A DNA stretch of 64,000 bases from Candidatus Doudnabacteria bacterium (GTDB taxonomy: Bacteria; Patescibacteriota; Doudnabacteria; UBA920), in contig CAWINB010000004.1 in the NCBI GenBank assembly GCA_963837465.1, positions 330,853 through 394,852 of the forward strand. The letters run 5' to 3'. Shown piece after piece: positions 12,904-51,865 of the stretch. Made by a program: the position numbers and the translations under genes. The stretch's first letter is position 1. Each line of letters opens with the position of its first letter. The notes under the pieces are model-generated. The model saw only the letters and a program-made list of their open reading frames with translations. It did not search any database and had not been told where the DNA came from.

Positions 12904-14016
12904 TTAACCCAAGCTCTGAAAAGTTATTTTAATTATTTCAGATTCGGTAAAAATTCTCAAAGCCGGGCCCCAGGTGCCCACGCCGCTGGAAGTTAAAACC
13001 TGTAAGTCCCCTAAAGCCTTAAGGCCGTAATCGTAACCTTTAAAAATTTTGCGGGTAACATAGCGACCCGGCCAAATTTGTCCCAGGTGGGTGTGGCCCG
13101 AAAGCTGCAGGCTTACTCCGCTTTGTTCCGCGACGGACAAATGACTGGGTACGTGTTTTAAAAGTATGGAGGGCTTGTTGTTTGCCAAACCGGTTTTCAG
13201 TAGCCGAGTTTTAACAGTTTCATCAGTTTCCTGTTTATAGGCCAGGCCTAAAACCTGCAAACCCTCTATCTCCACTTTCTGGTCTTCCAAAATTTTGATG
13301 CCGGCATTTCTTATGGCTTGTTCGCAAATACCGTAACCGGCGAACATTTCGTGGTTGCCGGAACAAAAGTAAATTCCCAATGGAGCTTTGATTTTTTTAA
13401 ATTCATTTGCCAATCCCTGGAAGTCGCTGCGCGCGCCGTCATAAAAATCTCCGGGAATAAAAACAATCTCGGGATTTAAAGAGTTGGTAATTTTGATTAT
13501 TTTTTTGGCGAAACCGTTTTTTAAAATCTGCCCCAGATGCAAATCGGAAACCATAACCGCGGTTTTGCCTTTCCAAAAATCCGGCAAATTGGGCAGATTG
13601 ACCGTTAGGTGCTTAATTCTTATTACGCGCGCGTTAACGGCGCCGTAAACAACCAGGGTCAATGAGACGATAATGCTAAGGTGCCCCGCGGTAGTTAGTG
13701 CCAGCAGGCCTAAAGCGCAAAGGACCAGGGTTAAAGCGGAAGCCATTAAAAAGTAGAGCCCCCATACTATCCAAATTCCGGCCAAGACGTTGCCCCAGTT
13801 TAAGAGGAAACTTTGGTAATTATGGGTAAGCAGTGTAAACAATAAAAAAGCAAAAGATAACAGCAGCATTATTACGGCCAGCAAAATGTGGTAAGGGTAA
13901 AGGGCGGGGAAAAACAACAGCAGGAGCTCGTATCCCAGCCAATGGCAAGCGGCAATAAACAATTGCGCGATTCCAATTACGTAAATTAAATTTTTAGGCA
14001 TGTTTACAGTATACAT
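12904..14016 (-). CDS. membrane-anchored calcineurin-like metallophosphoesterase
   Basis: 370 aa with an N-terminal multi-TM region, then VMVSDLHLGQ...GNHE, the metallophosphatase motifs. Confidence 0.7.
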   Translation of the reverse strand: MYTVNMPKNLIYVIGIAQLFIAACHWLGYELLLLFFPALYPYHILLAVIMLLLSFAFLLFTLLTHNYQSFLLNWGNVLAGIWIVWGLYFLMASALTLVLCALGLLALTTAGHLSIIVSLTLVVYGAVNARVIRIKHLTVNLPNLPDFWKGKTAVMVSDLHLGQILKNGFAKKIIKITNSLNPEIVFIPGDFYDGARSDFQGLANEFKKIKAPLGIYFCSGNHEMFAGYGICEQAIRNAGIKILEDQKVEIEGLQVLGLAYKQETDETVKTRLLKTGLANNKPSILLKHVPSHLSVAEQSGVSLQLSGHTHLGQIWPGRYVTRKIFKGYDYGLKALGDLQVLTSSGVGTWGPALRIFTESEIIKITFQSLG

Positions 14017-15628: not shown

Positions 15629-16287
15629 TGCTTGGCGGTTAGGAATTAAATCTTAACGTTTAAAACTTCAATAAACTTTTAGTTCAATTTTGCTCTTATG
15701 TAAGCGGGCATCGCTGATTATAGGAGATCCCTATTGGCACCTGGGAGACTGGACATTATCCACATTTAAGATGGATATGTTTTTTTTAGCCTCAATTTTA
15801 GACCCTTCAGGATCAAATTATAGAGGCTAATCCGCCGAAGCCTTGGCGAAGGCTGGATAACTAAGTTTGATCGCCGATAAATCGGCACGCTACGCCAATC
15901 ATCTTGGTCAAAGCAAAGTACCTCAAAATGAGATGCTCCGCTCCGCTCAGGATGCGTTCCTACGGAACTGTACCTTAACAGTTAAATAGTGATTAGAAAA
16001 CACTGAATACCGCCCGGTATTTAGTGTGTACAAAACCATCGCGTCTTGACCTATTTAAACCAGGTTGAGATGCAATGTTTGCGTCAATTCAATATGAGTT
16101 CAATGATATTCTGTGAATAACAGAAAAATGTTTTGTTAGGTTTACATTTTACAAAAATAAATCTAACGCCAACTTAACATCAATATTTATATTCGTGTTA
16201 AGAGGTTTGTCTTTTAGACAGATCAAACTTTCAATTTTATTTCCGTCCCGCCAAAGGCTGGGACAATTCAGGATTTATAATTGATTT

Positions 16288-17873
<1,586 letters not shown>

Positions 17874-26497: not shown

Positions 26498-27703
26498 TTG
26501 CCTCTAAATAATCAAAATCCCTCTATGATGATTGACAGTATACGTCTAAGAATTTCTATATTTAGTAGCGTGAAAAATAACTTCTTTTTTAGAGAAAAAA
26601 GAGGGAGCCTTGATTATGATAATAGTAATAGACAGAGGGTTAAACAATTTATACGAACCAATTTTAAGTGGAGCGAACAACAACGGTCTCAGGGTAAATA
26701 TATCCCAAAATATTGGACAGAAACCAACAGCTTTGAGGGCGGTAAACAGTATCTTATTTTTGAATTTTCAGTTCCAAAGTTCTTGCAGGGACATAATTTA
26801 GTCGAAATTGCAGAAACCATGCTGCCTGTCTTGGTGGATCGTCTCGAGGACTTCTGTAAAATAATTCAACTATCAGTTGCGGAGGTAGATATTTTGGGTG
26901 CGCAAGTCACGATGGTCGCATATTGTCATAATGTTCCGATAGCCCATCTGGCTCCTTCGCAAGAAGTTATGAAATTGTTATCTGGATATACCTATCGTTT
27001 TCGTTCTAAATTTCGGCCCGAGCAAAATGAATTGGGACAGATTACTCATTTACAACTCGGTAATAATACTTCCCATGTTACTGCTTATGATAAGTTGCCG
27101 GAGATTATAGTGCATGCCCGAACTACTGAGGAATTGGAAATTGCCAAAATAATTAAAAATAAACAGTTGCCAAATCCTTACGGAAAAATTATTCAAGACA
27201 CCATTAGGTTTGAGCTCACTTTACATAATACTGTGTCGGTAAGGCAAGCAATGAAAAAATTTTATGGTGACAAGCCTTTTTACACACTCAAGGATGTGTT
27301 CAAAGCCGATATTGCGGCGGCATTATTAAAGTTGGAAATGGAGGAAATTTATAATCACCCCCTTAAAAATATAGCTGCAAATTCTAATTATGACTTCCGA
27401 AAACTAAATGATGAGGTCGGTAAATTTATTCGAGACCGCCATCAGGACGGCAAACTGATTGGCTTGCTGGAACAGGCCACCCTTGTTCTACACGCCGGGG
27501 GCTGGGCGGCGGTCAGAACTTATTTAGCGAAAGGTTGTTGCCGCCGGACTTTGCAATACCGGATAGCTGAACTACGCGAAATAGAAAAAATTGGAATTAA
27601 TTTGGGAACGCCAAATGAAAAAATTATGGAATATATTTTAAACCAATTTGGCATTGGAAAAACTAATTTACTTCCTAAAGGCCAACAATTATTGTTTAGC
27701 TAA
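26498..27703 (+). CDS. hypothetical protein, possible replication-initiation protein of the element
   Basis: 401 aa. Preceded by imperfect direct repeats (tgccaggcggcgagaggtaagg at 26184 and tgccaggaggcggaggagtaagcg at 26262). The functional call is weak. Confidence 0.3.
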   Translation: MPLNNQNPSMMIDSIRLRISIFSSVKNNFFFREKRGSLDYDNSNRQRVKQFIRTNFKWSEQQRSQGKYIPKYWTETNSFEGGKQYLIFEFSVPKFLQGHNLVEIAETMLPVLVDRLEDFCKIIQLSVAEVDILGAQVTMVAYCHNVPIAHLAPSQEVMKLLSGYTYRFRSKFRPEQNELGQITHLQLGNNTSHVTAYDKLPEIIVHARTTEELEIAKIIKNKQLPNPYGKIIQDTIRFELTLHNTVSVRQAMKKFYGDKPFYTLKDVFKADIAAALLKLEMEEIYNHPLKNIAANSNYDFRKLNDEVGKFIRDRHQDGKLIGLLEQATLVLHAGGWAAVRTYLAKGCCRRTLQYRIAELREIEKIGINLGTPNEKIMEYILNQFGIGKTNLLPKGQQLLFS

Positions 27704-27916
27704 TTTATATGCAACTGCCATGTTTATCTATAGCCAACAAAAACCATACAGTCTATGCGTCTTTTGTCTCCCTAAGTATTACGTCAATACACGTGCAATC
27801 TTTTGCACATTTTCACAGAGAATAATTGTGCAAGTTATAAAGCGCAGCTTAGGCAATATATGTGCAATCGCAAAAAGCCAAAATGTTACAAATCAATGAC
27901 TGAATAAAGTTGTCTC

Positions 27917-28885
27917 ATGAGCCAGTTTAACCAAAACCCAGATCCTAATTTTATACAGCAGCCATCTGCTCCGGTTTTAGGTTTGCCGGTCGTAAATACC
28001 CCACAGCTTTTGACCTTTGAACAGTTGATCCCGTTGTTTGGCGATTACGTCACTTACGATTTGAATCATAGTCCTAAGACATCCAAAAAGTATGTCGAGG
28101 GGTTAAGGCATATTTTGAAAGACCTACCCTTTATAGTTTACCCCCAAGACTTAACGTTGCCGCATATTACGGAACTGAAGAAAAAAGTGCAGTTGCGTGG
28201 CGCAAAAGAGTCCCGAGTTAATAGTCTACTATTCTCATTGCGAAAATTTTTAACCTATTGTAACGAAGTCTATAAACTGGTTACAATAAATCCAAAGGAA
28301 ATTAAAGTTATGCGATTACCAAAAAGGGAAGTGGTGTTTTTGGCTCCTGCCGAAATTGAGCAATTTTTAAGCGCAATGGATACAACAACTTTGCCGGGAT
28401 TACGAATACGGACGCTTGTAGAGGTGCTACTTTCCACTGCTATGCGAATTTCCGAAGCCCTGTCGGTCAGCCGTGGGGACATTGACTGGGAGGGCAAGGA
28501 AATTGTCATTATAGGGAAAGGCAATAAGCAGCGGACGGTATTTTTAAGCGATAGGGCAATCGGTTGGCTTCAAACCTATTTACTCCGGCGTAAGGATAAT
28601 GACCCTGCTTTGTTCGTAACCTTTGGCGAACCCAAACGCTTGTCGCCTTATGACTTGTCTAAGCAGTTTAAGCACTATGCTGAAAAAGCAGGATTAAAGA
28701 AAAAAGTAACACCCCATATTTTACGCCATACGGCCGCGACAACCATGTCCCATAACGGCGCGGACATTCGTAACATTCAGCTAATTTTAGGCCATAGCGA
28801 CATTAAAACAACCGCCAAATATTACTTAGGCGTGGACAAAGAGGCTTTAAAGGAAGCCCATAAAAAGTTTCTAAAATACGATTAG
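27917..28885 (+). CDS. tyrosine recombinase/integrase (class B)
   Basis: 322 aa with LLSTAMRISEAL...IIGKGNKQRTVFL...HILRHTAATTM...GHSDIKTTAKYY. A distinct clade from the 18138 integrase. Confidence 0.85.
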   Translation: MSQFNQNPDPNFIQQPSAPVLGLPVVNTPQLLTFEQLIPLFGDYVTYDLNHSPKTSKKYVEGLRHILKDLPFIVYPQDLTLPHITELKKKVQLRGAKESRVNSLLFSLRKFLTYCNEVYKLVTINPKEIKVMRLPKREVVFLAPAEIEQFLSAMDTTTLPGLRIRTLVEVLLSTAMRISEALSVSRGDIDWEGKEIVIIGKGNKQRTVFLSDRAIGWLQTYLLRRKDNDPALFVTFGEPKRLSPYDLSKQFKHYAEKAGLKKKVTPHILRHTAATTMSHNGADIRNIQLILGHSDIKTTAKYYLGVDKEALKEAHKKFLKYD

Positions 28886-28962
28886 GCAGGCAAACTACCT
28901 ATGGATTGAGTGGTTTCTAAGATAGTTTACCCCTTATTTTATAGGGTTTTTATGATTTTGGC

Positions 28963-28991
28963 TTGACAGAAGCCATAAAATCAGGTATAAT
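28963..28991 (+). promoter_or_regulatory. consensus sigma70 promoter (TTGACA-17-TATAAT) upstream of DGR target gene
   Basis: Perfect hexamers with a 17-nt spacer. An SD (aaggaggg) lies at about 29112. Confidence 0.55.
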
Positions 28992-29128
28992 TAAAAGTTA
29001 ATTTTGAGACTGGAAATTGAGCTATCAAAGTTTATTTAATGGCTGAATTGCCTGTCCCAACTGTTGGGATTTGGTGTGCCGTGGCTTTCACGGATGCAGT
29101 TAATGTTCCTATAAATCAATAAGGAGGG

Positions 29129-29806
29129 ATGACGCCAATGGAAACCCCGTTGACCGTATCCACTAACAATCCCCGAGAAGGCAAACAGGGCCGGAAGTTG
29201 TATTACCGGCTCAAAACCTCAATTAAGAAATCCGGATTATTAATTGTAGCGCTTCAACCCGCGCTTGAGTTCCCCGGCACAGCGATGGAAGACGACATCG
29301 CGGCTATCTTGGTAAAGTATTCCAAGATGGCTCGTGGCATCGTTACTCCCGTCCGCGCCGAGGACACCGGCCTCATGCCCCAGGGCTATTCGGTATACCT
29401 CACGCCGCAGGGCGTTCGCAAGGATCGTCTGGAAGGCGACGTCGAGCTGGCTAATGTCGACTACATCTGCCCGTTGCGGGATGATGATGGCGACTATATC
29501 GGCGGCGAGGTAATGCTCCAGCGGTCGGTCGAACTCAAGGCCATCGGTAGCCTCGGCTACGCTTTCGCGCTTCTCAAGGCGCAGGAGCAAGGGAAGGAAA
29601 TCTTTCCTGTCGAGTCGCGCGGCAAGCATTATTTCATTATGCCGCTCACCGAGCTGCTCGGTGACGACCGTGGCCGCCGCGTGGCTTGCTTCGGCTGGCA
29701 CGGCAAGTCGCTGCGTTGGGTGCTCTTCTTCCGTTGGGTCGGCGGCGTCTTCGCTCGCCGCGGTCGGTTTGTTGTTCCCCGCGAGAAGAAGCCCTCGGTC
29801 GCTTAG
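29129..29806 (+). CDS. DGR variable (target) protein, VR at C-terminus
   Basis: 225 aa. GC content is much higher than the surroundings. The C-terminal region ...ACFGWHGKSLRWVLFFRWVGGVFARRGRFVVPR is encoded by the VR. Confidence 0.75.
   Translation: MTPMETPLTVSTNNPREGKQGRKLYYRLKTSIKKSGLLIVALQPALEFPGTAMEDDIAAILVKYSKMARGIVTPVRAEDTGLMPQGYSVYLTPQGVRKDRLEGDVELANVDYICPLRDDDGDYIGGEVMLQRSVELKAIGSLGYAFALLKAQEQGKEIFPVESRGKHYFIMPLTELLGDDRGRRVACFGWHGKSLRWVLFFRWVGGVFARRGRFVVPREKKPSVA
29654..29782 (+). repeat. DGR variable repeat (VR)
   Basis: 129 nt aligned to the TR at 30148-30276. About 25 mismatches, every one at a position where the TR has adenine. A GC-rich IMH-like sequence and the hairpin ccccgcat...atgcgggg follow at 29783-29890. 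Confidence 0.85.
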
Positions 29807-30147
29807 TCCCTCGGCTCTGCCGCTGGGTTCTGGACTCTTGGCGCTTCGCATTGCCCCGCATTTTGACTTCGGTCAGGATGCGGGGTGTTTTTTTGTCCAA
29901 AATTTTGAAAGTTTGGTATAATTTAAGTAGATGGGATTTATGCCTGCGGTTAAGGCTTCAGGTGACCACATCTCGCATTGTTAAAAAACCAGAGTATCGG
30001 CGGCTACGGTTTCCGGTAGAGTGTTTTTTAACAAATCTTAAAAAGAAGATACTCGGTGCAAAGTATTGGCGGGCTTTAAGGCCCCAAATAAAATACAACC
30101 CCAAGAGTATTCAAGGGGTGGTGGCTTGGAATATACTTTGCATAATC

Positions 30148-30276
30148 CTGCTCGATGACAACCGTAACCGCAACGTGGCTTACTTCAACTGGAACGACAA
30201 GTCGCAGCGTTGGGTGCTCAACTTCAATTGGGTCGACAACAACTTCAATCGCAACGATCGGTTTGTTGTTCCCCGC
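30148..30276 (+). repeat. DGR template repeat (TR)
   Basis: Adenine-rich (AAC codons: AYFNWNDKSQRWVLNFNWVDNNFNRNDRFVVPR). Lies between the target gene and avd/RT. Confidence 0.85.
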
Positions 30277-30644
30277 TATTGTCTTCTTACTCCTCCCACA
30301 ACGGGAGGAGTTTCTTTTAATAACTGCCGCTGCCAGCCGCCAAACATTTTACCCGCGTCAACCAGAGGTGTTGAAATATCACTAAATTGTTTATTGTCTA
30401 AGGCTTTTAACTCCCAAGCCAATTGTAGGAAGTATTTAAGGGTATCAAGTTTAATGCTTGCCTTTTGAATTAAGATTGACTTGCTATCCCTTGAGGTAAA
30501 GCCCGCTGTCAGCGTTAGTTCAATAACATCGGTGAACAGGACATTGATTTTTTCAGCCAAGGAGTATTTTACCAGCTTGGGCAGGTGTGGCAGGTAGTTG
30601 TGCCAGAGTTTGTAAGCATCGGTAATTTTTTGTAATACCGGCAA
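30276..30644 (-). CDS. avd: DGR accessory variability determinant (Avd)-like four-helix-bundle protein
   Basis: 122 aa, helical, 23S-rRNA-IVS-protein-like sequence (LAEKINVLFTDVIELTLTAGF...LKYFLQLAWEL). Located between TR and RT as in canonical DGRs. Confidence 0.6.
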   Translation of the reverse strand: MPVLQKITDAYKLWHNYLPHLPKLVKYSLAEKINVLFTDVIELTLTAGFTSRDSKSILIQKASIKLDTLKYFLQLAWELKALDNKQFSDISTPLVDAGKMFGGWQRQLLKETPPVVGGVRRQ

Positions 30645-30673
30645 GTTGATAAAATTTCCGTTGGGGGGGGGGG

Positions 30674-31717
30674 TTGTTAAAAGTCATTTTTATAAGTTTA
30701 ATTATGAAAACGCAATTAAAAATAAGTTACGAGGAAATCATTTCACTCGAAAATTTGTTTGCCGCCTGGCAGGAGTTTTTGCCGGGCAAGAGAAAAAAGA
30801 AAGACGTGCAGGAATTTGGCCTTAGGCTTGCTGATAACATTTTACAGCTTCAGGAGGAACTTGCCAATTTTAGCTATATCCACGGCCCATACAAGGCCTT
30901 TAACATTTCTGACCCCAAGCCGAGGAATATCCATAAGGCAAGCGTTCGGGACAGAGTTTTACATCACGCCATTTACCGCAAACTATATCCGTTTTTCGAC
31001 AAAACTTTTATCGGCAGTTCGTATTCCTGCCGTTTGGACAAAGGAGTTCACAAGGCTTTGAATAAGTTTAGGGCATTGGCGTTTAAAGCAAGTAAAAATC
31101 ATACGCAAACAGCTTGGGTGCTCAAGTGTGATATTAAAAAGTTTTTCGCCAGCATTGACCATGCAAAACTGCTGAAAATTTTATCAGCTTACGTTCCCGA
31201 TAAAAATATTCTTTGGGTTTTAGAGCGAATTATTTATAGCTTTGATTATAAGGTAGCAGGCCGCGGCCTCCCGCTTGGCAACCTGACCTCCCAATTATTT
31301 TGCAACGTATATATGAACGAATTTGACCAATTCATAAAACACAAACTCAAGGCCAAATATTATATCCGTTATGCTGATGATTTTGTTTTTTTATCGGGTA
31401 GCAAGGACGAGCTAATATCCTTAGTTCCTAAAGTAGCCGAGTTTTTAGGAGAGGACTTAAAACTGTCTTTGCATCCGGATAAAGTTTTTATAAAGACCTT
31501 GGCCTCGGGCGTGGACTTCCTGGGCTGGGTGCATTTCCCTCATTACCGGGTTCTAAGAAAAAATACCGGCAGAAGAATGTTCAAACGAATTTACGGCCAT
31601 CCAACAAATGAAACATTCCAGTCATATTTAGGGTTAATGAGCCACGGAAATACTTACGGGCTTAAACAAAAATTGTTGAATTGGTATGGGTTACTTAAAA
31701 CAGCACAGCAGGAATAG
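30674..31717 (+). CDS. DGR reverse transcriptase
   Basis: RT motifs include YIRYADDFVFL (YADD). Motif 4 is LGNLTSQLFCNVYMN, the IGxxxSQ-like feature characteristic of DGR RTs. Also SDPKPRNIHKASVRDRVLHHA. The probable start is the Met at 30704. Confidence 0.85.
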   Translation: MLKVIFISLIMKTQLKISYEEIISLENLFAAWQEFLPGKRKKKDVQEFGLRLADNILQLQEELANFSYIHGPYKAFNISDPKPRNIHKASVRDRVLHHAIYRKLYPFFDKTFIGSSYSCRLDKGVHKALNKFRALAFKASKNHTQTAWVLKCDIKKFFASIDHAKLLKILSAYVPDKNILWVLERIIYSFDYKVAGRGLPLGNLTSQLFCNVYMNEFDQFIKHKLKAKYYIRYADDFVFLSGSKDELISLVPKVAEFLGEDLKLSLHPDKVFIKTLASGVDFLGWVHFPHYRVLRKNTGRRMFKRIYGHPTNETFQSYLGLMSHGNTYGLKQKLLNWYGLLKTAQQE

Positions 31718-31786
31718 AAAAGGCCACGTTGCTGGAACGTGGCCCCCGTCTTAATGTGACGACGGATTGAGTGGCTGCTTGCGGGA

Positions 31787-32353
31787 TTACCGACTGACGT
31801 AGGCGAACTGGCCTTCCTGCACCGGCTTGCGTTCGGTAGCGCCGACCAGCGAAGCGACAGTCATGCGCATACCCACCGGCAGATTTTGGAGGAGTGTGGC
31901 ATGGCCGCCTTTGAAGCGGATTGCATCGCGGTAGTTGTTGACCCGCTCGCTGAGCTGATCGAACGTCGCTTCCTGCGGTTTTCCATTGCCTTTGTTGAGA
32001 TTCAACTTGGCTCCGGGTGGAACGCAGATGGCGCAGACAACGGGCGGGTTATTGCTGGTGACAGCTTGTTTGATTTTAGCCACCACACCCGTTTCATTAC
32101 GAACCGACTGCCACGCCTGAAAGGCGTTTAAGTCAGCTACGGAGGCCAGACCGATTGTGCCTGTGCCGAAGCGGTGAGTAACGAGTTCCTCACCCTCTTG
32201 AGCCAGACGGTTATTGACTCCCATCAAGGAGTAGTCGCACATAGGGTTAAACCCTCTTTCCAATTGGATTTTCAAGGTCATGACAGCACCATGAATTATC
32301 CAAATCATAAACGAACAGAGAGAGAGAGAGTCAATAGAGGATTTTTTATGCAA
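31787..32353 (-). CDS. hypothetical protein, high-GC (foreign composition)
   Basis: 188-aa ORF. The probable start is the internal Met at about 32283. No recognisable motif. Confidence 0.3.
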   Translation of the reverse strand: MHKKSSIDSLSLCSFMIWIIHGAVMTLKIQLERGFNPMCDYSLMGVNNRLAQEGEELVTHRFGTGTIGLASVADLNAFQAWQSVRNETGVVAKIKQAVTSNNPPVVCAICVPPGAKLNLNKGNGKPQEATFDQLSERVNNYRDAIRFKGGHATLLQNLPVGMRMTVASLVGATERKPVQEGQFAYVSR

Positions 32354-32549
32354 GGTCGCTAAAAAAATTGATTTTTGCTAAAATATAGTAAACACTACGG
32401 GTCGATTTATAAAAAATTTATGCCGGACTATAATCACCTGCTTGTAACAACCCAAGCTAAAAGCAAAAGGCCAAAATGGTGGTGGATAGTAATTGTTATT
32501 TTTGCAGTTTTGATAGTAATTGTGCTATTAAAAAAATAATTTTATAACT

Positions 32550-33200
32550 ATGGAAACTGAAACCCGTTCTACCCCCCCCCATACCTCTTCCGAGAACCCA
32601 GACACTTGGGTCAAAGACACCACCCAAGCTATGAGGAAGCCTGGCGGCAGGGACTTGGCCGACTACAAGGAATTTTTAGGATTTACCGAAAATGAGCTTG
32701 CAGGCAAGACAATTTTAGATTTGGGTTCGGGTTCAAAAGAAAAATTATCACGCCAGCTAAAGGAAGCCGGCGTTGTTGCTAATGTAGTTAGTCTGAACCC
32801 GGATTATACCATTCCTAAGTATAGGCGCATTATAAACAACGAGGAAGACTGGCAGAAAAAATCCGTAGCCGCCTTAGCCCAAAGCCTGCCTTTTAAGGAT
32901 GGCAGCTTTGACAGTGTTTTATCTTTGGAAGCCATAACGATGTATGAGGATGCTTTTGAAAAACCGGACAGTGCCAAAAAATGGGCGGCAGAAATAGCAA
33001 GGGTCTTAAAACCCGGCGGCGAAGCAAGGCTGGGAGAAATTTTGGGTTTCAAAGGTGAACTAAAGCAACAGGCTTGGCAGGAGCTGGTTAGGCTTTTTGC
33101 GGATTTAGGCGTAGAGGCAAGAATTGAGCAATTTAAAATCAGGGAAACAAACCCGATGCCGAGATTTAGGTTGGTTCTGAAAAAATCTTTAATCCAATAA
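32550..33200 (+). CDS. class I SAM-dependent methyltransferase with C9 homopolymer tract near 5' end
   Basis: ILDLGSGSKEK motif I and LKPGGEARL. A C9 run at 32572-32580 lies within the N-terminal extension. Confidence 0.6.
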   Translation: METETRSTPPHTSSENPDTWVKDTTQAMRKPGGRDLADYKEFLGFTENELAGKTILDLGSGSKEKLSRQLKEAGVVANVVSLNPDYTIPKYRRIINNEEDWQKKSVAALAQSLPFKDGSFDSVLSLEAITMYEDAFEKPDSAKKWAAEIARVLKPGGEARLGEILGFKGELKQQAWQELVRLFADLGVEARIEQFKIRETNPMPRFRLVLKKSLIQ

Positions 33201-33222
33201 TTAACCATTAACCTTTTTATTT

Positions 33223-33657
33223 ATGACAGAAATCAAAAGAAATTTTGAGGATGAACCCACTCGCCAAGAGCGTGATCCTCAACATTTAGAAGTAAAGCGT
33301 TTGTTTGAATCCTTAGCAGCCCAACACGGCACTGGGATTATGCTTAAGTATATTGAAAGTGTTACCGATGTTGCTCCCAAAGTGGCGTCCGAATGGTTTG
33401 AAGGTCATCGTCATCCCAGCTCAGGTATTCGCAAGGCTATCCTTAACTGCTTGCGGAATTTTAAGCATGAAGATTTACCCAAGCAACCGGAACATATAAA
33501 AGCTCCGCTGGCTACCAGTCAGCCAAAAGAAAATAAACAAATTCCAACAAGACAGCCAAGGCCGCAGGAGCAGAAAAAACAGGAAACCATTGCAAAAAAT
33601 GAAGCTGAGCTTAAAGCCATAATGGATAGGGCAAGGGAAAAGGGGCAAATAACTTAG
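33223..33657 (+). CDS. hypothetical protein
   Basis: 144 aa, charged and helical. Confidence 0.3.
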   Translation: MTEIKRNFEDEPTRQERDPQHLEVKRLFESLAAQHGTGIMLKYIESVTDVAPKVASEWFEGHRHPSSGIRKAILNCLRNFKHEDLPKQPEHIKAPLATSQPKENKQIPTRQPRPQEQKKQETIAKNEAELKAIMDRAREKGQIT

Positions 33658-33690
33658 TTTTTTATAGATTTATTGGTCTTTATATAGGAC

Positions 33691-33719
33691 TTGACAATGT
33701 GGTGTTTACCATATACAAT
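33691..33719 (+). promoter_or_regulatory. sigma70-type promoter (TTGACA-17-TACAAT) for brnTA
   Basis: Consensus -35, a 17-nt spacer and a near-consensus -10, located 7 nt upstream of the brnT start. Confidence 0.5.
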
Positions 33720-33725
33720 TGAAGT

Positions 33726-34040
33726 ATGGATTTCATATTAAACAATTTTGAGGGTTTTGAGTGGGATGAGGGGAACGAACAAAAGAGCTTTTTGAAACAT
33801 GGCATTACGCCATTGGAAGCGGAAGAAGCATTTTTTAACCCCAATTTTATATCAGCTGATCCTGTCCATAGCCAGAGCGAAAAGCGTTACCGCTTATTGG
33901 GCAGAACTAACAGTAGTAAAGTTTTAATAATAGCTTTTACAATAAGAAGTAACAAAGCGAGAGTTATCTCTTCGCGATTAGCCAATAAAAAAGAAAGGAC
34001 ATTATATGACCAAGCAGTTAAAGCCAATTCCCAAATTTAA
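33726..34040 (+). CDS. brnT: BrnT-family (DUF497) toxin
   Basis: FEWDEGNEQKSFLKHGITPLEAEEAFFNP matches the BrnT signature. It overlaps the downstream antitoxin gene. Confidence 0.7.
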   Translation: MDFILNNFEGFEWDEGNEQKSFLKHGITPLEAEEAFFNPNFISADPVHSQSEKRYRLLGRTNSSKVLIIAFTIRSNKARVISSRLANKKERTLYDQAVKANSQI

Positions 34041-34272
34041 GACTGAAGCCGAAGAAGCCAAGTTTTGGAATAGCCACGACTCTACCCAGTATATTGACTG
34101 GTTAAAAGCCCCGCGTGGCGTTTTTCCTAACCTAAAACCATCTTCTCAATCTGTTTCACTTCGCATTCCAGCCAACATATTAGCTCGCATTAAAGTGCAA
34201 GCCAATCAGTTAGACGTGCCTTATCAATCTTTGATGAAGCAGTATATTGCTAACGGTGTAATGAAGAATTAA
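34006..34272 (+). CDS. brnA: BrnA-family antitoxin
   Basis: FWNSHDSTQYIDW...SLRIPANILARIK, with an RHH-like C-terminus typical of BrnA. Confidence 0.65.
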   Translation: MTKQLKPIPKFKTEAEEAKFWNSHDSTQYIDWLKAPRGVFPNLKPSSQSVSLRIPANILARIKVQANQLDVPYQSLMKQYIANGVMKN

Positions 34273-34584
34273 ATGCAATGGGCAGTATAAGACATATTGA
34301 CGCAGGTCATCCGGATGAGTGGTATAAGGACAGGTTTATGGTCACATTTACCGAGGAAGGTATAATGGATCTGAGGTACCAAGATTGGGTTGGCGGCAGG
34401 ATGGAAGTGTATGTTGTGGGAGAGCAGTATGCAATAGATGAAATTCGGTTTTTTTACCCCAAACACATTAGAATGGATAAACTTTAGGGAGCAATATGAT
34501 GGCAAGTGGTTAGATAAAACTGCATTTGAAGACGTAGTGGAAACGGTAAAGAAAAGGTTTTACACCAAACCAGAAAGCAGAATT

Positions 34585-34680
34585 TAACAATTAAATTGAT
34601 CTTTTAAATTTTTAATACAGTAGTAGTTTGTCAGGCAATTTCCGTTTACAACGGCTCAGAAACACCTCCTTTCTAAGGAA
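34585..34680 (+). repeat. right arm type 1 plus att core copy 2 (RA at 34585-34662, core at 34663-34680)
   Basis: About 78 bp (aattgatcttttaaatttttaatacagtagtagtttgtcaggcaatttccgtttacaacggctcagaaa) identical to 51783-51858, followed by cacctcctttctaaggaa. Confidence 0.75.
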
Positions 34681-34942
34681 TAAATATGCAGCCTTAAACT
34701 TTTCGAAGTTTATGTTGTTGCACATTCCAGTGGTCGTCATCTTCTATTTCGATAGAAGGTGCACATACTCTAACGATTGAACGTAAACGAACGGTTTTGT
34801 AAAAGGTAATTCTACCCTTATTTTCGCAAGATTATAAGGAGTCTCAACGCCTTAAATGTTGGGAGTCACTATTTAGCCGTTAAGGGAACTTAACGAAATT
34901 GCAAATAAAAGCCTCGTCATCAGCAATGATAACGAGGTTTTT

Positions 34943-35929
34943 ATGTATGAGGTTAATTCGGTAGAAAGAGTCGCAAAAGGTGGAATTGCGGCGACAGTCA
35001 GCCCCGCCGCTCCTATCGGCACAAAGATTAGCACTTTGGTGCCGCAATTCTTGGCTTATGGCCAGTATGACCTGTCCTTTGCCGCAGGCACCATAGAGAA
35101 ATACCGCGATAGCCTAAACGTCTTTATGCGGGACGTTGGGGATTTGCCCGTAGAGGAATTAAACTTTGGGCATTTTACTTTGCTGAAACAAAAAATTATG
35201 GAAAGGGGGTCGGGGGTCTCACGCATAGCGGGCGTGGTCTTTGCGATGAAAAGTATGTTAAAGTTTGCTACCGACGTATTGGAGATGCAGATTTTGGATT
35301 ATAAGAAAATCAGAGCGCCGAAGCGGCGCAGGCGGGACGTAGTTTATTTAACCAATGCCGAAATCCAGCAGTTCGTTGACAGCATAAAGTTTGAAAAATG
35401 CTGGACGGGCAATACCCGTAAAAAGGGCATCAGCGTCCACCGCCTGAGGTTTCGGACTTTGGTTGAAGTCTTGCTTGGCACGGGGATGCGTATAAGCGAA
35501 GCATTGTCGCTTACAAGGGATGTTATAAACTTTGAAAAAGGCGAGGCTAAGATAATCGGCAAAGGAAGCAAGGAGCGCACAGTGTTTTTTAACGAACGGG
35601 CTTTGTATTGGATTAAGTTTTATTTGGAACAGAGAAACGACGACAATCCCGTTATATTTTTAAACCGAAAAGGCAAGCCGCTGGACAGGGGCGATGCCGA
35701 TACTTTGTTTAAGCGTTACGCAGAAAGGTCAGGTATAACTAAAAAATTAACGCCGCACATTTTGCGGCACACGATGGCGACGAATCTGCTTTTTAACGGA
35801 TGCCCGATTGGCCATATTAAGGAAATCCTCGGACACGACCGATTAGAGACAACTTGTCGTTATTATTTGGGCTTAGACAAAGATAAAGCTAAAGAAGCCC
35901 ACGGCCAATTTTTAAATTACGAACAATAA
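34943..35929 (+). CDS. tyrosine recombinase/integrase (class A)
   Basis: 328 aa. The C-terminal catalytic half is near-identical in pattern to the 18138 and 47997 integrases. Confidence 0.85.
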   Translation: MYEVNSVERVAKGGIAATVSPAAPIGTKISTLVPQFLAYGQYDLSFAAGTIEKYRDSLNVFMRDVGDLPVEELNFGHFTLLKQKIMERGSGVSRIAGVVFAMKSMLKFATDVLEMQILDYKKIRAPKRRRRDVVYLTNAEIQQFVDSIKFEKCWTGNTRKKGISVHRLRFRTLVEVLLGTGMRISEALSLTRDVINFEKGEAKIIGKGSKERTVFFNERALYWIKFYLEQRNDDNPVIFLNRKGKPLDRGDADTLFKRYAERSGITKKLTPHILRHTMATNLLFNGCPIGHIKEILGHDRLETTCRYYLGLDKDKAKEAHGQFLNYEQ

Positions 35930-51003: not shown

Positions 51004-51779
51004 TGCTGACTTTAGAACAAATTGAACAGCAGTATCCGGAAAACTTACGAGGCTTTAAGCGTTCGCTGCTTCGGGAGTATTTGCAGTATAAGATTTTAGA
51101 AATTATTTTTGCCTCTGAGTATGCCACCAAGTTAGTTTTTATCGGCGGCACGGCTTTAAGGATAGTTCACGACAACAGTCGTTTTTCGGAAGATGTGGAC
51201 TTTGATAATTTCGGATTAACGGCAGCCGAGTTTGAGGAGACATCGCAAAAGGTTAAGGCAGGACTTACAGCGGAAGGGTTTAATGTTGAAATAGGCTTTA
51301 GGGGTAAGGAATCCTACCGCTGTGATGTAAAGTTTCCCGGCTTACTCTTTGGGAGCGGACTTTCGCAGCACGAAGGCGAAAAGATACTGGTGCAAATAGA
51401 TAGTTTATCCCAAGGCTTTAGCTATAAGCCTGAACGTAAGATATTAAACAAGTTTGATGTTTTTACGGAAATTTTTACCCCTTCGCCCGAGTTATTACTA
51501 TCTCAAAAGATTAACGCTATTTTTACACGGAAGCGGGCAAAGGGCAGGGACTTTTATGATGTTGTGTTTTTACTATCCTTTACAAAGCCAAACTATCAGT
51601 TTTTGACGCAAAAGTGGGGAATTGAGAATGGTGAGGGATTAAGAGCAAAGCTAATGGAAATGGCTTCCAAGCTCGATTTTAAGGATTTGGCACGGGATGT
51701 AGAGCCGTTTCTATTCAATCCGAGTGACAGTAAGAAGGTTGAGTTATTCGCGGATTTTATTAAGCAAGCTAAGTTGTAA
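51003..51779 (+). CDS. abiEii: AbiEii/AbiGii-family nucleotidyltransferase toxin
   Basis: FIGGTALRIVHDNSRFSEDVDFD, the GG..L....RfS.DvD NTase motif of DUF1814/AbiEii. Length is 258 aa. Confidence 0.7.
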   Translation: MLTLEQIEQQYPENLRGFKRSLLREYLQYKILEIIFASEYATKLVFIGGTALRIVHDNSRFSEDVDFDNFGLTAAEFEETSQKVKAGLTAEGFNVEIGFRGKESYRCDVKFPGLLFGSGLSQHEGEKILVQIDSLSQGFSYKPERKILNKFDVFTEIFTPSPELLLSQKINAIFTRKRAKGRDFYDVVFLLSFTKPNYQFLTQKWGIENGEGLRAKLMEMASKLDFKDLARDVEPFLFNPSDSKKVELFADFIKQAKL

Positions 51780-51782
51780 GTT

Positions 51783-51865
51783 AGCAATTAATTGATCTTT
51801 TAAATTTTTAATACAGTAGTAGTTTGTCAGGCAATTTCCGTTTACAACGGCTCAGAAACACCTCC
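51783..51865 (+). repeat. right arm type 1 (second copy) plus partial core cacctcc (51859-51865)
   Basis: Identical over about 78 bp to 34585-34662. After cacctcc the sequence diverges (ctccggctacag). Confidence 0.75.

Follow-up and report, generated by a model that had tools for sequence, protein, structure and literature searches.

The window analysed here, a 64,000-nt stretch with a GC content of 43%, contains a diversity-generating retroelement (DGR). Its reverse transcriptase (RT) is encoded on the forward strand (30704..31717; Pfam RVT_1, 1.9e-26) and is 59-77% identical to the RTs of 160 CPR DGR loci. The body of the accessory gene avd lies on the reverse strand (30276..30644) and comprises 122 codons from an LPVLQK motif to the stop; it matches Pfam bAvd (1.9e-11) and NCBIfam DivGenRetAVD (1.1e-17; profile positions 1-103 against residues 1-105). 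Alignment with each other delimits the template repeat (TR, 30154..30277) and the variable repeat (VR, 29660..29783), both on the forward strand, with the VR at the 3' end of a target gene (29129-29806) whose product is 41% identical to its counterpart in locus L005. Over the 124 nt of this alignment 26 of the 27 mismatches fall at TR adenines, and the DGR has therefore been active. A DGR-group RT next to a TR, adenine-biased TR/VR differences and a divergent, adjoining avd are thus all present. The gene order of this class of CPR DGRs is target-TR-avd(reverse)-RT, and avd is divergent from and adjoins the RT in 72 of 73 relatives. In Wu et al. (PMC5758913), CPR bacteria are reported to carry large numbers of highly diverse DGRs, 90% of which have architecture B3; the divergent avd suggests that the window locus is of this type. 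A genome scan yielded no RT closer than 77% identity and a metagenome scan none above 72%. The closest relative, L222 (83% nucleotide identity), came from an Avd protein search.

Three simple-sequence tracts lie within 1.9 kb at this locus: a G11 homopolymer (30663-30673, forward strand, hence C11 on the avd strand), an (AG)7 tract (32317-32330, which is (CT)7 on the reverse strand that carries the gene next to it) and a C9 run (32572-32580, forward strand). An earlier note on this DNA had pointed out all three, and reading the sequence confirmed them, except that the AG tract has seven units and ends at 32330; the eighth unit and the end at 32332 given in that note were wrong. The claim that long G/C tracts are unexpected here holds as well. 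Simulations with Markov models of order 3 and order 5 that were trained on this same window predict per 64 kb about 0.1 G/C runs of at least 9 nt and about 0.003 AG/CT repeats of at least seven units. G11 and C9 are the only G/C runs of at least 8 nt in the window and (AG)7 is its longest dinucleotide repeat; after these come a C7, a G6 and an (AG)5, each present once. Nor are comparable tracts abundant elsewhere, as the frequency of such tracts was counted in the window and in 1.21 Mb around the 160 related CPR DGRs, where 138 lie at the avd-RT junction and three at other places, one of the three adjoining a displaced avd. Given the low Markov expectation and these three off-junction tracts, the cluster is far beyond chance. 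An independent Logan assembly of run ERR10755945 contains all three tracts at equal lengths (100% identity for both L001 and L082); they therefore do not stem from errors of a single assembler. The (AG)7 and C9 tracts, in a promoter spacer and in the coding region of a methyltransferase respectively, are lineage-specific neighbours of the conserved G11.

The earlier note had regarded G11 as intergenic, but it lies inside the translated leader of avd. An avd-strand ATG is open into the tract in 128 of 128 related loci, whereas shuffles have one in 45 of 128 on average and in 64 at most. On the strength of this conserved open ATG, the true start codon of avd in the window is most likely the ATG at 30685..30687 (reverse strand), which stands head to head with the RT ATG at a distance of 16 nt. 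The C11 run begins 14 nt past this ATG and is read as Pro codons on the avd strand. The leader sequence ATG-ACT-TTT-AAC recurs in the close relatives L222, L223 and L224, and the products of two ON alleles, P0196 and P0219, start with MAFNSPPP and MTFNNPPP. With G11, the ATG at 30687 and the Avd body are in different frames, and the predicted product of this ATG is 44 aa long. In silico, G10 and G13 join this ATG to Avd and give proteins of 136 and 137 aa, and G8, G9, G11, G12 and G14 give products of 38-45 aa, which answers the question, raised in the earlier note, whether tract length moves the start codon in or out of frame. The leader thus combines a mutable pure repeat in the 5' part of an open reading frame, just after its start, with an in silico toggle between full and truncated product, as in translational phase variation.

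The same arrangement recurs in the survey of the 160 related loci. A simple repeat occupies the homologous site, at most 120 nt upstream of the RT, in 134 of the 143 loci usable for tract position (about 94%). Tract lengths peak at G10 (40 loci) and G9 (33), followed by G8 (23) and G11 (12), with a maximum of G14. At seven loci (about 5%) the G-run is replaced by (AG)n, (CT)n, (GT)n or (TC)n. In most loci the avd-strand ATG is formed by RT codon 7 read in antisense; this codon is CAT 93 times and CAC twice, compared with a ratio of 1054:772 for the two in the rest of the RT (P = 5e-20). Between tract and body the Avd frame is open in 124 of 124 loci, and the body is intact (109-131 aa) in all 117 of these that are not cut by a contig end. 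The frame of the ATG relative to the body is close to random, with offsets of 0, 1 and 2 in 29, 49 and 46 of the 124 loci. Only 29-31 of the 124 repeat-bearing loci (~25%) therefore have ATG and Avd body in frame, and 42 have no canonical start whatsoever in the Avd frame. All 11 relatives that share the head-to-head layout and lack the tract, seven IMG/VR contigs and four cellular loci, are in frame (Fisher P = 1e-6 against the tract-bearing loci). Homopolymer tracts have G on the RT-sense strand in 66 of 66 cases. Pure DNA slippage does not require such a uniform orientation, which may reflect common descent or a strand-specific function.

A very different reading is that Avd starts at the TTG at 30644, the first codon of its body, and that the G-run is either a sequencing or assembly artefact or a functionless by-product in an untranslated leader. 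The window and 30 of 71 loci (about 42%) have TTG at this codon, an over-representation compared with the 21% of Leu codons that are TTG in the RT, and gene callers annotate a 122-aa Avd (P0263). However, 41 of the 71 loci (about 58%) have a non-start codon at this position (CTA, TTA, CTT, ATA and others), so the codon is not a conserved start, and the tract-less loci use the upstream ATG. We therefore rejected TTG 30644 as the conserved start of avd. The residues from the tract to LPVLQK are also conserved as protein within the clade (NGNFIN, NGNFGN). The tract itself was found at one position in 134 loci, which come from many different projects and assemblers, and the window yielded it in two independent assemblies. 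Runs remain pure and uninterrupted even across lineages with RTs of only 60% identity, which speaks for selection. A neutral or artefactual origin of the tract is therefore highly improbable. The TTG could still permit weak internal initiation and so make an OFF state leaky.

Tract lengths differ between closely related alleles. L141 and L055 have G9 and L143 has G10 within identical 1000-nt flanks, and L105 (G9) and L106 (G8) share 98.7% identity. In the clade of the window, the window (C11) and L222 (C12) are OFF and L224 (C9) is ON; L223 also has C11, yet it is ON through a compensating 1-nt loss downstream. Some assemblies have the leader and others lack it in front of identical Avd bodies (104/104, 95/95 and 118/118 residues), leader variants APP and APPP were both found, and two contigs of 7906 and 7907 nt have leaders read in different frames. 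The tract is thus polymorphic within constant flanks among near-identical strains, although these are comparisons between assemblies, in which homopolymer errors are possible. The 100 nt upstream of the RT show an about 9-fold excess of contig ends (P = 2e-11). These breaks at the tract and the differences between assemblies could partly result from homopolymer sequencing or assembly error, especially on low-coverage contigs. For the window itself, exact-protein look-ups for strain-level variants returned only identical Logan contigs, all from run ERR10755945. The Logan assembly of this run crosses G11 unbroken, so that one length at least dominates that sample.

We propose that G11 is a slipped-strand ON/OFF contingency switch in the coding leader of avd, and hence a switch on DGR mutagenesis; judged from sequence, we give this a probability of roughly 0.6. 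Translation of avd would begin at the ATG head to head with the RT start and pass through the poly-C run as Pro codons into the four-helix-bundle body of Avd, from LPVLQK onward. Slipped-strand mispairing would alter the tract length and so bring the ATG into or out of frame with this body. The G11 of the window would then represent the OFF state, with the 44-aa out-of-frame peptide, and G10 or G13 the ON state. In the Bordetella phage system cDNA synthesis needs Avd plus RT (Handa 2018, PMC6182149), for which reason the tract would act as a heritable and reversible on/off control of adenine mutagenesis in the target gene, if the dependence on Avd can be extrapolated to this class of CPR DGRs. 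From the anatomy, the conservation, the frame statistics and the length differences between near-identical alleles we infer DNA-level switching within populations and silencing of the DGR by OFF alleles. The earlier note had suggested slipped-strand switches that gate the RT and Avd as well as the adjacent methyltransferase. For G11 this idea is borne out by the conserved site, the variable length and the near-random frame, and it stands for Avd, by way of the reading frame; there is no excess of RT-sense ATGs into the tract that would extend it to the RT. Translation of the RT through the tract was rejected, as an RT-sense ATG is open into it in 44 of 126 loci compared with 54 in shuffles. 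In the wider form of the proposal, DGR hypermutation throughout the CPR would be under a heritable stochastic ON/OFF switch through a repeat long kept in the avd leader, with most cells and assembled genomes silent and rare slippage re-arming them; to us this generalization has an even chance of being right.

Near-random frames are equally expected if the frame is restored at the RNA level. RNA polymerase could slip on the tract (on runs of 8-9 nt or more), or tRNA-Pro could re-pair on CCC-C while the ribosome stalls at poly-Pro, and either would provide a low constant dose of Avd whatever the DNA length. The conserved ATG, the open leader and the open Avd frame fit such recoding equally well, and it would explain why the 42 of 124 loci without an in-frame start retain an intact avd. 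Most tracts also have at least 8 nt, which is about the length of the RNA-DNA hybrid, and every homopolymer is C on the avd mRNA strand. Programmed transcriptional slippage and ribosomal frameshifting are known from dnaX, the transposases of IS elements and prfB, where one fixed frame relation is used, usually at A/T runs or heptamer slippery sites. As in these genes, a homopolymer lies here between two frames that must be joined for the protein, but all three frame relations occur, with 25% of the loci already in frame. Moreover, the (CT), (CA) or (GA) repeats at ~5% of the loci favour DNA slippage and are poorly suited to 1-nt slippage of RNA or tRNA. The compensating 1-nt deletion in L223 and the tract-less loci, which are always in frame, point to selection on the DNA frame. 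Recoding therefore seems unlikely, though it deserves consideration, and DNA switching and RNA recoding are compatible with each other.

Alternatively, the tract could act on transcription. It would then belong to the promoter of the RT, of avd or of both, either in the spacer or in an upstream element, and its length would set promoter strength in the manner of divergent promoters with a common repeat. As the two start codons are 16 nt apart, the promoters must overlap the tract region. The sharp length peak at 9-10 would suit such a role, and in one subgroup the tract is directly followed by a TAGAAT/TATAAT-like box, 7 nt ahead of the RT start codon, a position that would point to a leaderless mRNA for the RT. 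Against this, the geometry of such a box does not fit in the window, and the loci share no conserved pair of -35 and -10 elements around the tract; position matrices that use the tract or the RT start codon as anchor contain little information on either side of the tract. A transcriptional role also leaves unexplained why RT codon 7 is biased towards CAT, why the leader is always open and why 11 of 11 tract-less loci are in frame. We consider it quite improbable as the explanation of the tract, and a promoter effect could exist in addition to the frame switch.

The proposed avd switch resembles the translational phase variation by G/C homopolymers in contingency genes of Neisseria, Campylobacter, Helicobacter and Haemophilus, for instance lgt and pgtA (PMC2192423, PMC2193922, PMC8355987). 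Like these, it has a pure G/C run of 8-14 nt just past the start codon, a 1-nt change would toggle between full and truncated product, and near-identical strains vary. It differs in that the accessory protein of a DGR, and not a surface or restriction-modification gene, would be switched, so that one hypermutable device would act on another. The host, moreover, is an environmental bacterium of the mostly uncultured CPR instead of a host-adapted pathogen, the tract is kept at one orthologous site across very divergent lineages, and in most relatives the start codon of avd lies within the divergently oriented RT gene. The DGR of Bordetella phage BPP-1 (mtd-avd-TR-brt; PMC6182149) likewise has an RT, an Avd four-helix bundle and TR/VR with adenine-specific differences, but here the avd body is separated from its ATG by a hypermutable tract; the texts searched describe neither a simple repeat nor a frame switch for BPP-1. 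Full-text literature searches, together with term look-ups in a set of DGR surveys and reviews, likewise gave no mention of homopolymers or other simple repeats in either avd or the RT.

To our knowledge, the regulation of DGR activity is largely unknown. If the tract is a switch, DGR mutagenesis would be bistable and heritable, which would alter how VR diversity in metagenomes is read, as VR heterogeneity would be predicted to follow the tract frame, and the frame of one homopolymer would provide a simple rule to predict an armed DGR. It would also mean that avd genes of this class are systematically mis-annotated, with starts called after the tract or at internal ATGs and lengths of 70-122 aa instead of ~130-146 aa, and it would explain the assembly breaks just upstream of these RT genes. 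Contingency loci would extend beyond host-adapted pathogens to free-living or episymbiotic groundwater bacteria. If the wider CPR proposal is true, a hypermutable switch would govern a hypermutator, and the tract-less relatives on IMG/VR viral contigs would be permanently ON.

The C9 run lies in a gene for a class I SAM-dependent, UbiE-like methyltransferase (32550..33200, forward strand; Pfam Methyltransf_11, 2.3e-11). Its start ATG at 32550 is supported by a conserved N-terminus in an alignment of 15 sequences, in which M1, T24 and T25 are invariant and E4, W20 and D23 nearly so; 14 homologues retain this N-terminus. Of the two positions suggested earlier, an N-terminal extension or a 5' UTR, the former is near the mark, as C9 is coding and in frame near the N-terminus (codons 8-11, T-P-P-H), and the latter does not apply. 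C8 or C10 would truncate the protein at 27 or 48 aa. The homologous tracts of relatives are C7 (L165) and C6 (L166-L168), and no ON/OFF alleles were found among the five DNA sequences (C9, C7 and three C6), which are all in frame. That C9 gates the methyltransferase, as the earlier note had suggested, is thus doubtful. Phasevarions depend on phase-variable DNA methyltransferases (PMC3230613, PMC5700931), and C9 resembles them as a homopolymer near the 5' end of the coding sequence for a methyltransferase. However, the matches here are to Methyltransf_11/UbiE-like enzymes only, the best NCBIfam matches are small-molecule methyltransferases, all below cut-off, and there is no DNA-methylase or restriction-modification context. 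Since the enzyme is UbiE-like and not a DNA methyltransferase, the comparison does not apply. A functional link of the DGR to the methyltransferase or to the 151-aa gene that precedes it was also considered and rejected, as there was one weak match among the 160 DGR loci and the neighbours of L222 differ.

This 151-aa gene (31787..32242, reverse strand) is a conserved hypothetical gene whose product begins with MCDYSL. AGAGGG precedes its ATG at 32242, and a Shine-Dalgarno-like sequence upstream is conserved in L163 and L164. The protein has 181 homologues of 146-165 aa, the call in the source genome is likewise 151 aa (P0001), and Pfam and NCBIfam profile searches assigned it to no family. 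Because the reading frame starts at 32242 and not at 32353, (AG)7 is located upstream of it, in the promoter, and not in the 5' region of an ORF 31787..32353 as had been thought. The sigma-70-like promoter, as read from the sequence, occupies 32304..32334 on the reverse strand and consists of TTGACT (32334-32329), a 19-nt spacer and TATGAT (32309-32304); our promoter scan missed it because it allows only spacers of 16-18 nt. The (AG)7 tract thus lies between recognisable -35 and -10 hexamers, and its number of units sets the spacer length. Known promoter-spacer repeats include the (TA)n of H. influenzae, between the hifA and hifB promoters, and a poly-G tract of N. meningitidis, in the porA promoter. 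(AG)7 resembles them in that loss of one unit would shorten the spacer from 19 to 17 nt; it differs in that the gene which it would regulate is a conserved hypothetical gene. With one unit too many for a 17-nt spacer, the tract may well tune or switch transcription of the 151-aa gene, at about even odds. TTGACT is identical in L164 and L165, where the spacers have 17 nt and the -10 boxes are TAATAT and TACAAT. The position homologous to (AG)7 carries (AG)6 in L165 and (CT)4 in L164, and the orthologous spacers contain (CT)5 or (CT)3, repeats that are shorter and probably more stable than that of the window.

All three simple-sequence tracts claimed in the earlier note are present in the window: a G11 run (30663-30673), an AG repeat (32317-32330), which has seven units and not eight, and a C9 run (32572-32580). 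They are reproduced exactly in two Logan contigs of run ERR10755945. The window has a GC content of 43%; G11 and C9 are its sole G/C runs of at least 8 and (AG)7 is its longest dinucleotide repeat. Long G/C runs are indeed unexpected here, as Markov simulations trained on the window give ~0.1 runs of at least 9 per 64 kb. The proposal that the tracts are slipped-strand phase-variation switches gating the reverse transcriptase (RT), Avd and a methyltransferase is partly supported: the case is strong for an effect of G11 on avd, though not on the RT, plausible for (AG)7 once this is re-assigned to a promoter spacer, and weak for C9.

The window is bacterial, with a complete 16S rRNA gene (16287-17870) and two LOOT RNA motifs (Rfam RF03000; 689-802 and 19177-19305). 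It contains a canonical diversity-generating retroelement (DGR) with a target gene (29129-29806), a variable repeat (VR, 29660-29783) and template repeat (TR, 30154-30277) placed by TR/VR alignment, a minus-strand avd (30276-30644; Pfam bAvd and NCBIfam DivGenRetAVD matches) and an RT (30704-31717). Annotations of the nearest RT and Avd relatives name Candidatus Doudnabacteria and other Patescibacteria. Of the 27 mismatches between TR and VR, 26 fall on TR adenines, evidence that the DGR has been active. Two genes for tyrosine recombinases (27917-28885 and 34943-35929) enclose the DGR, a 151-aa gene, a small membrane ORF (32375-32539), the methyltransferase and a BrnT/BrnA toxin-antitoxin pair (33726-34272), and a Phage_CRI-like replication protein (26498-27703) adjoins the region, so that 26498-35929 probably represents an integrated mobile element. 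GC content is higher in the target gene and the 151-aa gene than in the rest of the window. A repeat of ~43 nt (93% identical) occurs at 34581-34623 and 51778-51819, and Logan contig L001 ends at that point. A strong terminator-like hairpin (29852-29887) lies 3' of the target gene, a promoter-like site (29893-29922; TTGTCC-18-TATAAT, preceded by TG) lies upstream of the TR, and a second hairpin with a T-run (30289-30311) lies directly 3' of the TR, inside the avd 3' end. The TR may thus be made as a separate short transcript, independent of the RT.

An RT query against genomes and metagenomes gave 160 related loci (RT identity 59-77%), and a simple repeat is found upstream of the RT in 134 of the 143 that have at least 120 nt of upstream sequence. 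Run lengths range from G6 to G14, with counts of 23 for G8, 33 for G9, 40 for G10 and 12 for G11, and the homopolymer is G on the RT-sense strand in the 66 tracts examined. Across 1.21 Mb of related DGR loci, 138 such tracts are located at the avd-RT junction and only three elsewhere, one of which adjoins a displaced avd; avd is adjacent and divergent in 72 of 73 loci examined. Dinucleotide repeats of up to 34 nt, (AG)n, (CT)n, (GT)n or (TC)n, replace the G-run in seven loci, which indicates that mutability and not G-specific chemistry is the selected property. The spacing between tract end and RT start has a period of three, with peaks at 13, 16 and 19 nt. In the 13-nt class, the tract is followed by a TAGAAT/TATAAT-like box that ends 7 nt before the RT ATG and would point to a leaderless RT transcript.

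The G11 run had been described as intergenic between avd and the RT, but it is part of the avd reading frame. LPVLQK, the conserved N-terminus of Avd, starts 5-12 nt from the tract, and the first codon of this Avd body is a Leu/Ile codon and not a conserved start, being TTG in ~42% (30/71) of loci and CTA, TTA, CTT, CTG, ATA or others in the rest. In 128/128 dereplicated loci, the avd strand has an ATG upstream of the tract whose frame is open into it (shuffles: mean 45, maximum 64), and between tract and body the Avd frame is free of stops in 124/124. This ATG is in most loci the antisense of RT codon 7 (His), for which 93 loci use CAT and 2 use CAC, compared with 1054:772 in the rest of the RT (P = 5e-20). 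The open ATG, the CAT bias and the open Avd frame together leave little doubt that avd starts head to head with the RT, often overlapping it, and that the tract is translated as Pro codons. No counterpart signal, an ATG open into the tract, was seen on the RT strand (44/126 loci versus 54 in shuffles). The proposed gating is thus supported by the frame evidence for avd and not for the RT. The head-to-head starts are visible at 30685-30706 of the window and in RT codons 1-7 of loci L002-L162, with an overlap of ~21 nt in most relatives. At RT codon 5, TTA and CTA, which are stops on the other strand, look depleted (6/56 Leu codons versus ~30% elsewhere in the RT). TTG makes up ~21% of RT Leu codons, and its excess at the first Avd-body codon (window 30644) could reflect weak internal initiation or another constraint, e.g. 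TTGCCA resembling a -35 box.

Every avd body not cut by a contig end is intact (117 of 124, 109-131 aa), and its frame relation to the upstream start varies. The nearest ATG is in frame with the body in 29/124 loci, or 31/124 if any open ATG is counted; offsets of 1 and 2 are found in 49 and 46 loci, and 42/124 have no canonical start in the Avd frame of the assembled sequence. With G11, ATG 30687 of the window yields a 44-aa out-of-frame peptide, whereas G10 and G13 restore an Avd of 136 and 137 aa in silico. Head-to-head relatives lacking the tract (7 IMG/VR viral contigs and 4 cellular loci) are in frame in 11/11 cases versus 31/124 (Fisher P = 1e-6); the viral set was L169-L175 and L177, with RTs 47-59% identical, and the cellular set L094, L128, L149 and L160. 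The upstream ATG is therefore the real avd start and the tract is the cause of the frame variability. Among IMG/VR viral relatives the divergent avd-RT layout comes without a tract and with an avd leader always in frame, and cellular CPR copies are nearly always tract-bearing. With just 16 nt separating the avd and RT start codons, and with a TAGAAT-like box between tract and RT ATG in one subgroup, the tract possibly acts in addition as a promoter spacer for RT or avd. Such a role leaves the open avd ATG, the CAT bias, the frame variability and the in-frame tract-less loci unexplained.

Tract length differs among close relatives, although these are differences between assemblies to which homopolymer error can contribute. 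Loci L055 and L141 have G9 and L143 has G10 with 1000 nt of identical flanks, L105 (G9) and L106 (G8) are 98.7% identical, and L030 and L117 (G8) are 97% identical to L125 (G10). The window's clade shares the leader ATG-ACT-TTT-AAC, followed by AACGGAAATTTTATCAAC, and varies in the C run on the avd strand: C11 in the window and C12 in L222 place the ATG out of frame (OFF), and C9 in L224 places it in frame (ON). L223 has C11 and is ON through a downstream loss of 1 nt that restores the frame. Translated, the ON alleles found in close relatives give MAFNSPPPNGNFGNLPVLQK and MTFNNPPPQRNFINLPVLQK. Clusters at 90% identity contain identical Avd bodies with and without leader (P0209/P0271 104/104, P0277/P0274 95/95, P0284/P0283 118/118), where some short calls are genes cut at contig ends. 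Both APP and APPP leaders occur, and contigs of 7906 and 7907 nt have leaders read in two different frames. The tract is also a systematic assembly breakpoint, as contig ends are ~9-fold enriched within 100 nt upstream of the RT (17 versus 1.9 per 100-nt bin, P = 2e-11). Contigs ending at the tract, within a few tens of nt upstream of the RT, include L009, L012, L015, L020, L027, L046, L061 and L091, and L113, L123, L129, L145, L151, L154 and others end there too; L035 has a run of N beside the tract and L080 a G17 and C51 run beside N. Near-identical Falkowbacteria Avd alleles end in ...QKQLTNNPRV (P0280-P0282) or ...QKQLIKETPPITGGVRR (P0279, P0283, P0284), which looks like a second frameshift near the C-rich ETPP codons, at the avd 3' end beside the TR.

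We propose, with a probability of roughly 60% and from sequence comparison, that the leader tract is an ON/OFF switch at the DNA level. Slipped-strand mispairing would alter tract length and move the avd ATG in or out of frame with the body; an OFF allele would give no full-length Avd and, by analogy with the Bordetella phage system from which silencing upon Avd loss is deduced (PMC6182149), would silence the DGR. The chief alternative is recoding in RNA, by transcriptional slippage or tRNA-Pro slippage on poly-C. It accounts for the near-random avd frames, but not for the dinucleotide variants or for the lack of one fixed frame relation. Selection on the DNA frame is evident from the deletion that compensates in L223 and from the tract-less loci, all of which are in frame. 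DNA switching and RNA slippage could also coexist, with slippage making OFF alleles leaky. Phase variation by simple sequence repeats and DGRs are each well known; here, unlike in known repeat-based phase variation, the switch would act on an accessory gene that is itself part of a diversity generator. CPR DGRs have architecture B3 in 90% of cases according to surveys (PMC5758913). The DGR surveys and reviews examined make no mention of a repeat tract, an avd frame problem or phase variation, although earlier mention elsewhere is possible, and full-text searches for DGRs together with homopolymers, frameshifts or phase variability gave nothing relevant. The proposed arrangement, in which a contingency switch controls a diversity generator and has been conserved throughout a large radiation, would be new relative to these sources.

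The (AG)7 tract was thought to lie in the 5' region of a minus-strand ORF (31787..32353), but the gene starts at ATG 32242 (MCDYSL..., 151 aa) and the tract falls in its promoter spacer. The start is not at 32353: homologues are 146-165 aa long, the call of the source genome is 151 aa, and AGAGGG lies upstream of ATG 32242, with similar purine-rich sequence in two relatives. Pfam and NCBIfam profile searches assigned the protein to no known family. On the gene strand (minus), (AG)7 lies between a -35-like TTGACT (32334-32329) and a -10-like TATGAT (32309-32304). The 19-nt spacer is one CT unit above the optimum, as orthologous promoters have identical TTGACT and 17-nt spacers (L165 with (AG)6 and -10 box TACAAT, L164 with (CT)4 and TAATAT). 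These three sequences would fit a repeat in the promoter spacer by which transcription of the 151-aa gene is tuned or switched. The same methyltransferase protein occurs in L166, L167 and L168 from different samples. The minus-strand gene upstream of it (L166 5446-5844, L167 6012-6425, L168 2731-3144) encodes 137 aa in two of them and is split into 42-aa and 111-aa calls in the third, which may be a frameshift allele.

C9, placed by the earlier note in an N-terminal extension or 5' UTR of the methyltransferase, lies in the coding sequence. The N-terminus is kept in 14 homologues (M1, E4, W20, D23-T25), which makes ATG 32550 the start and places C9 within codons 8-11, as part of T-P-P-H. The run is in frame in the window; in silico, a change to C8 or C10 cuts the product to 27 or 48 aa. 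C9 is rare for these genomes by the tract survey of 1.21 Mb of related loci and could be mutable, but the DNA relatives examined, with C7 in L165 (with synonymous CCA) and C6 in L166-L168, are all in frame and gave no sign of switching. Profile matches place the enzyme among UbiE-like class I SAM methyltransferases and not among DNA methylases. L166 also carries a bAvd gene (13287-13665), 6.6 kb from the methyltransferase homologue, and its contig stops 28 nt past the avd start, where the tract would be expected.
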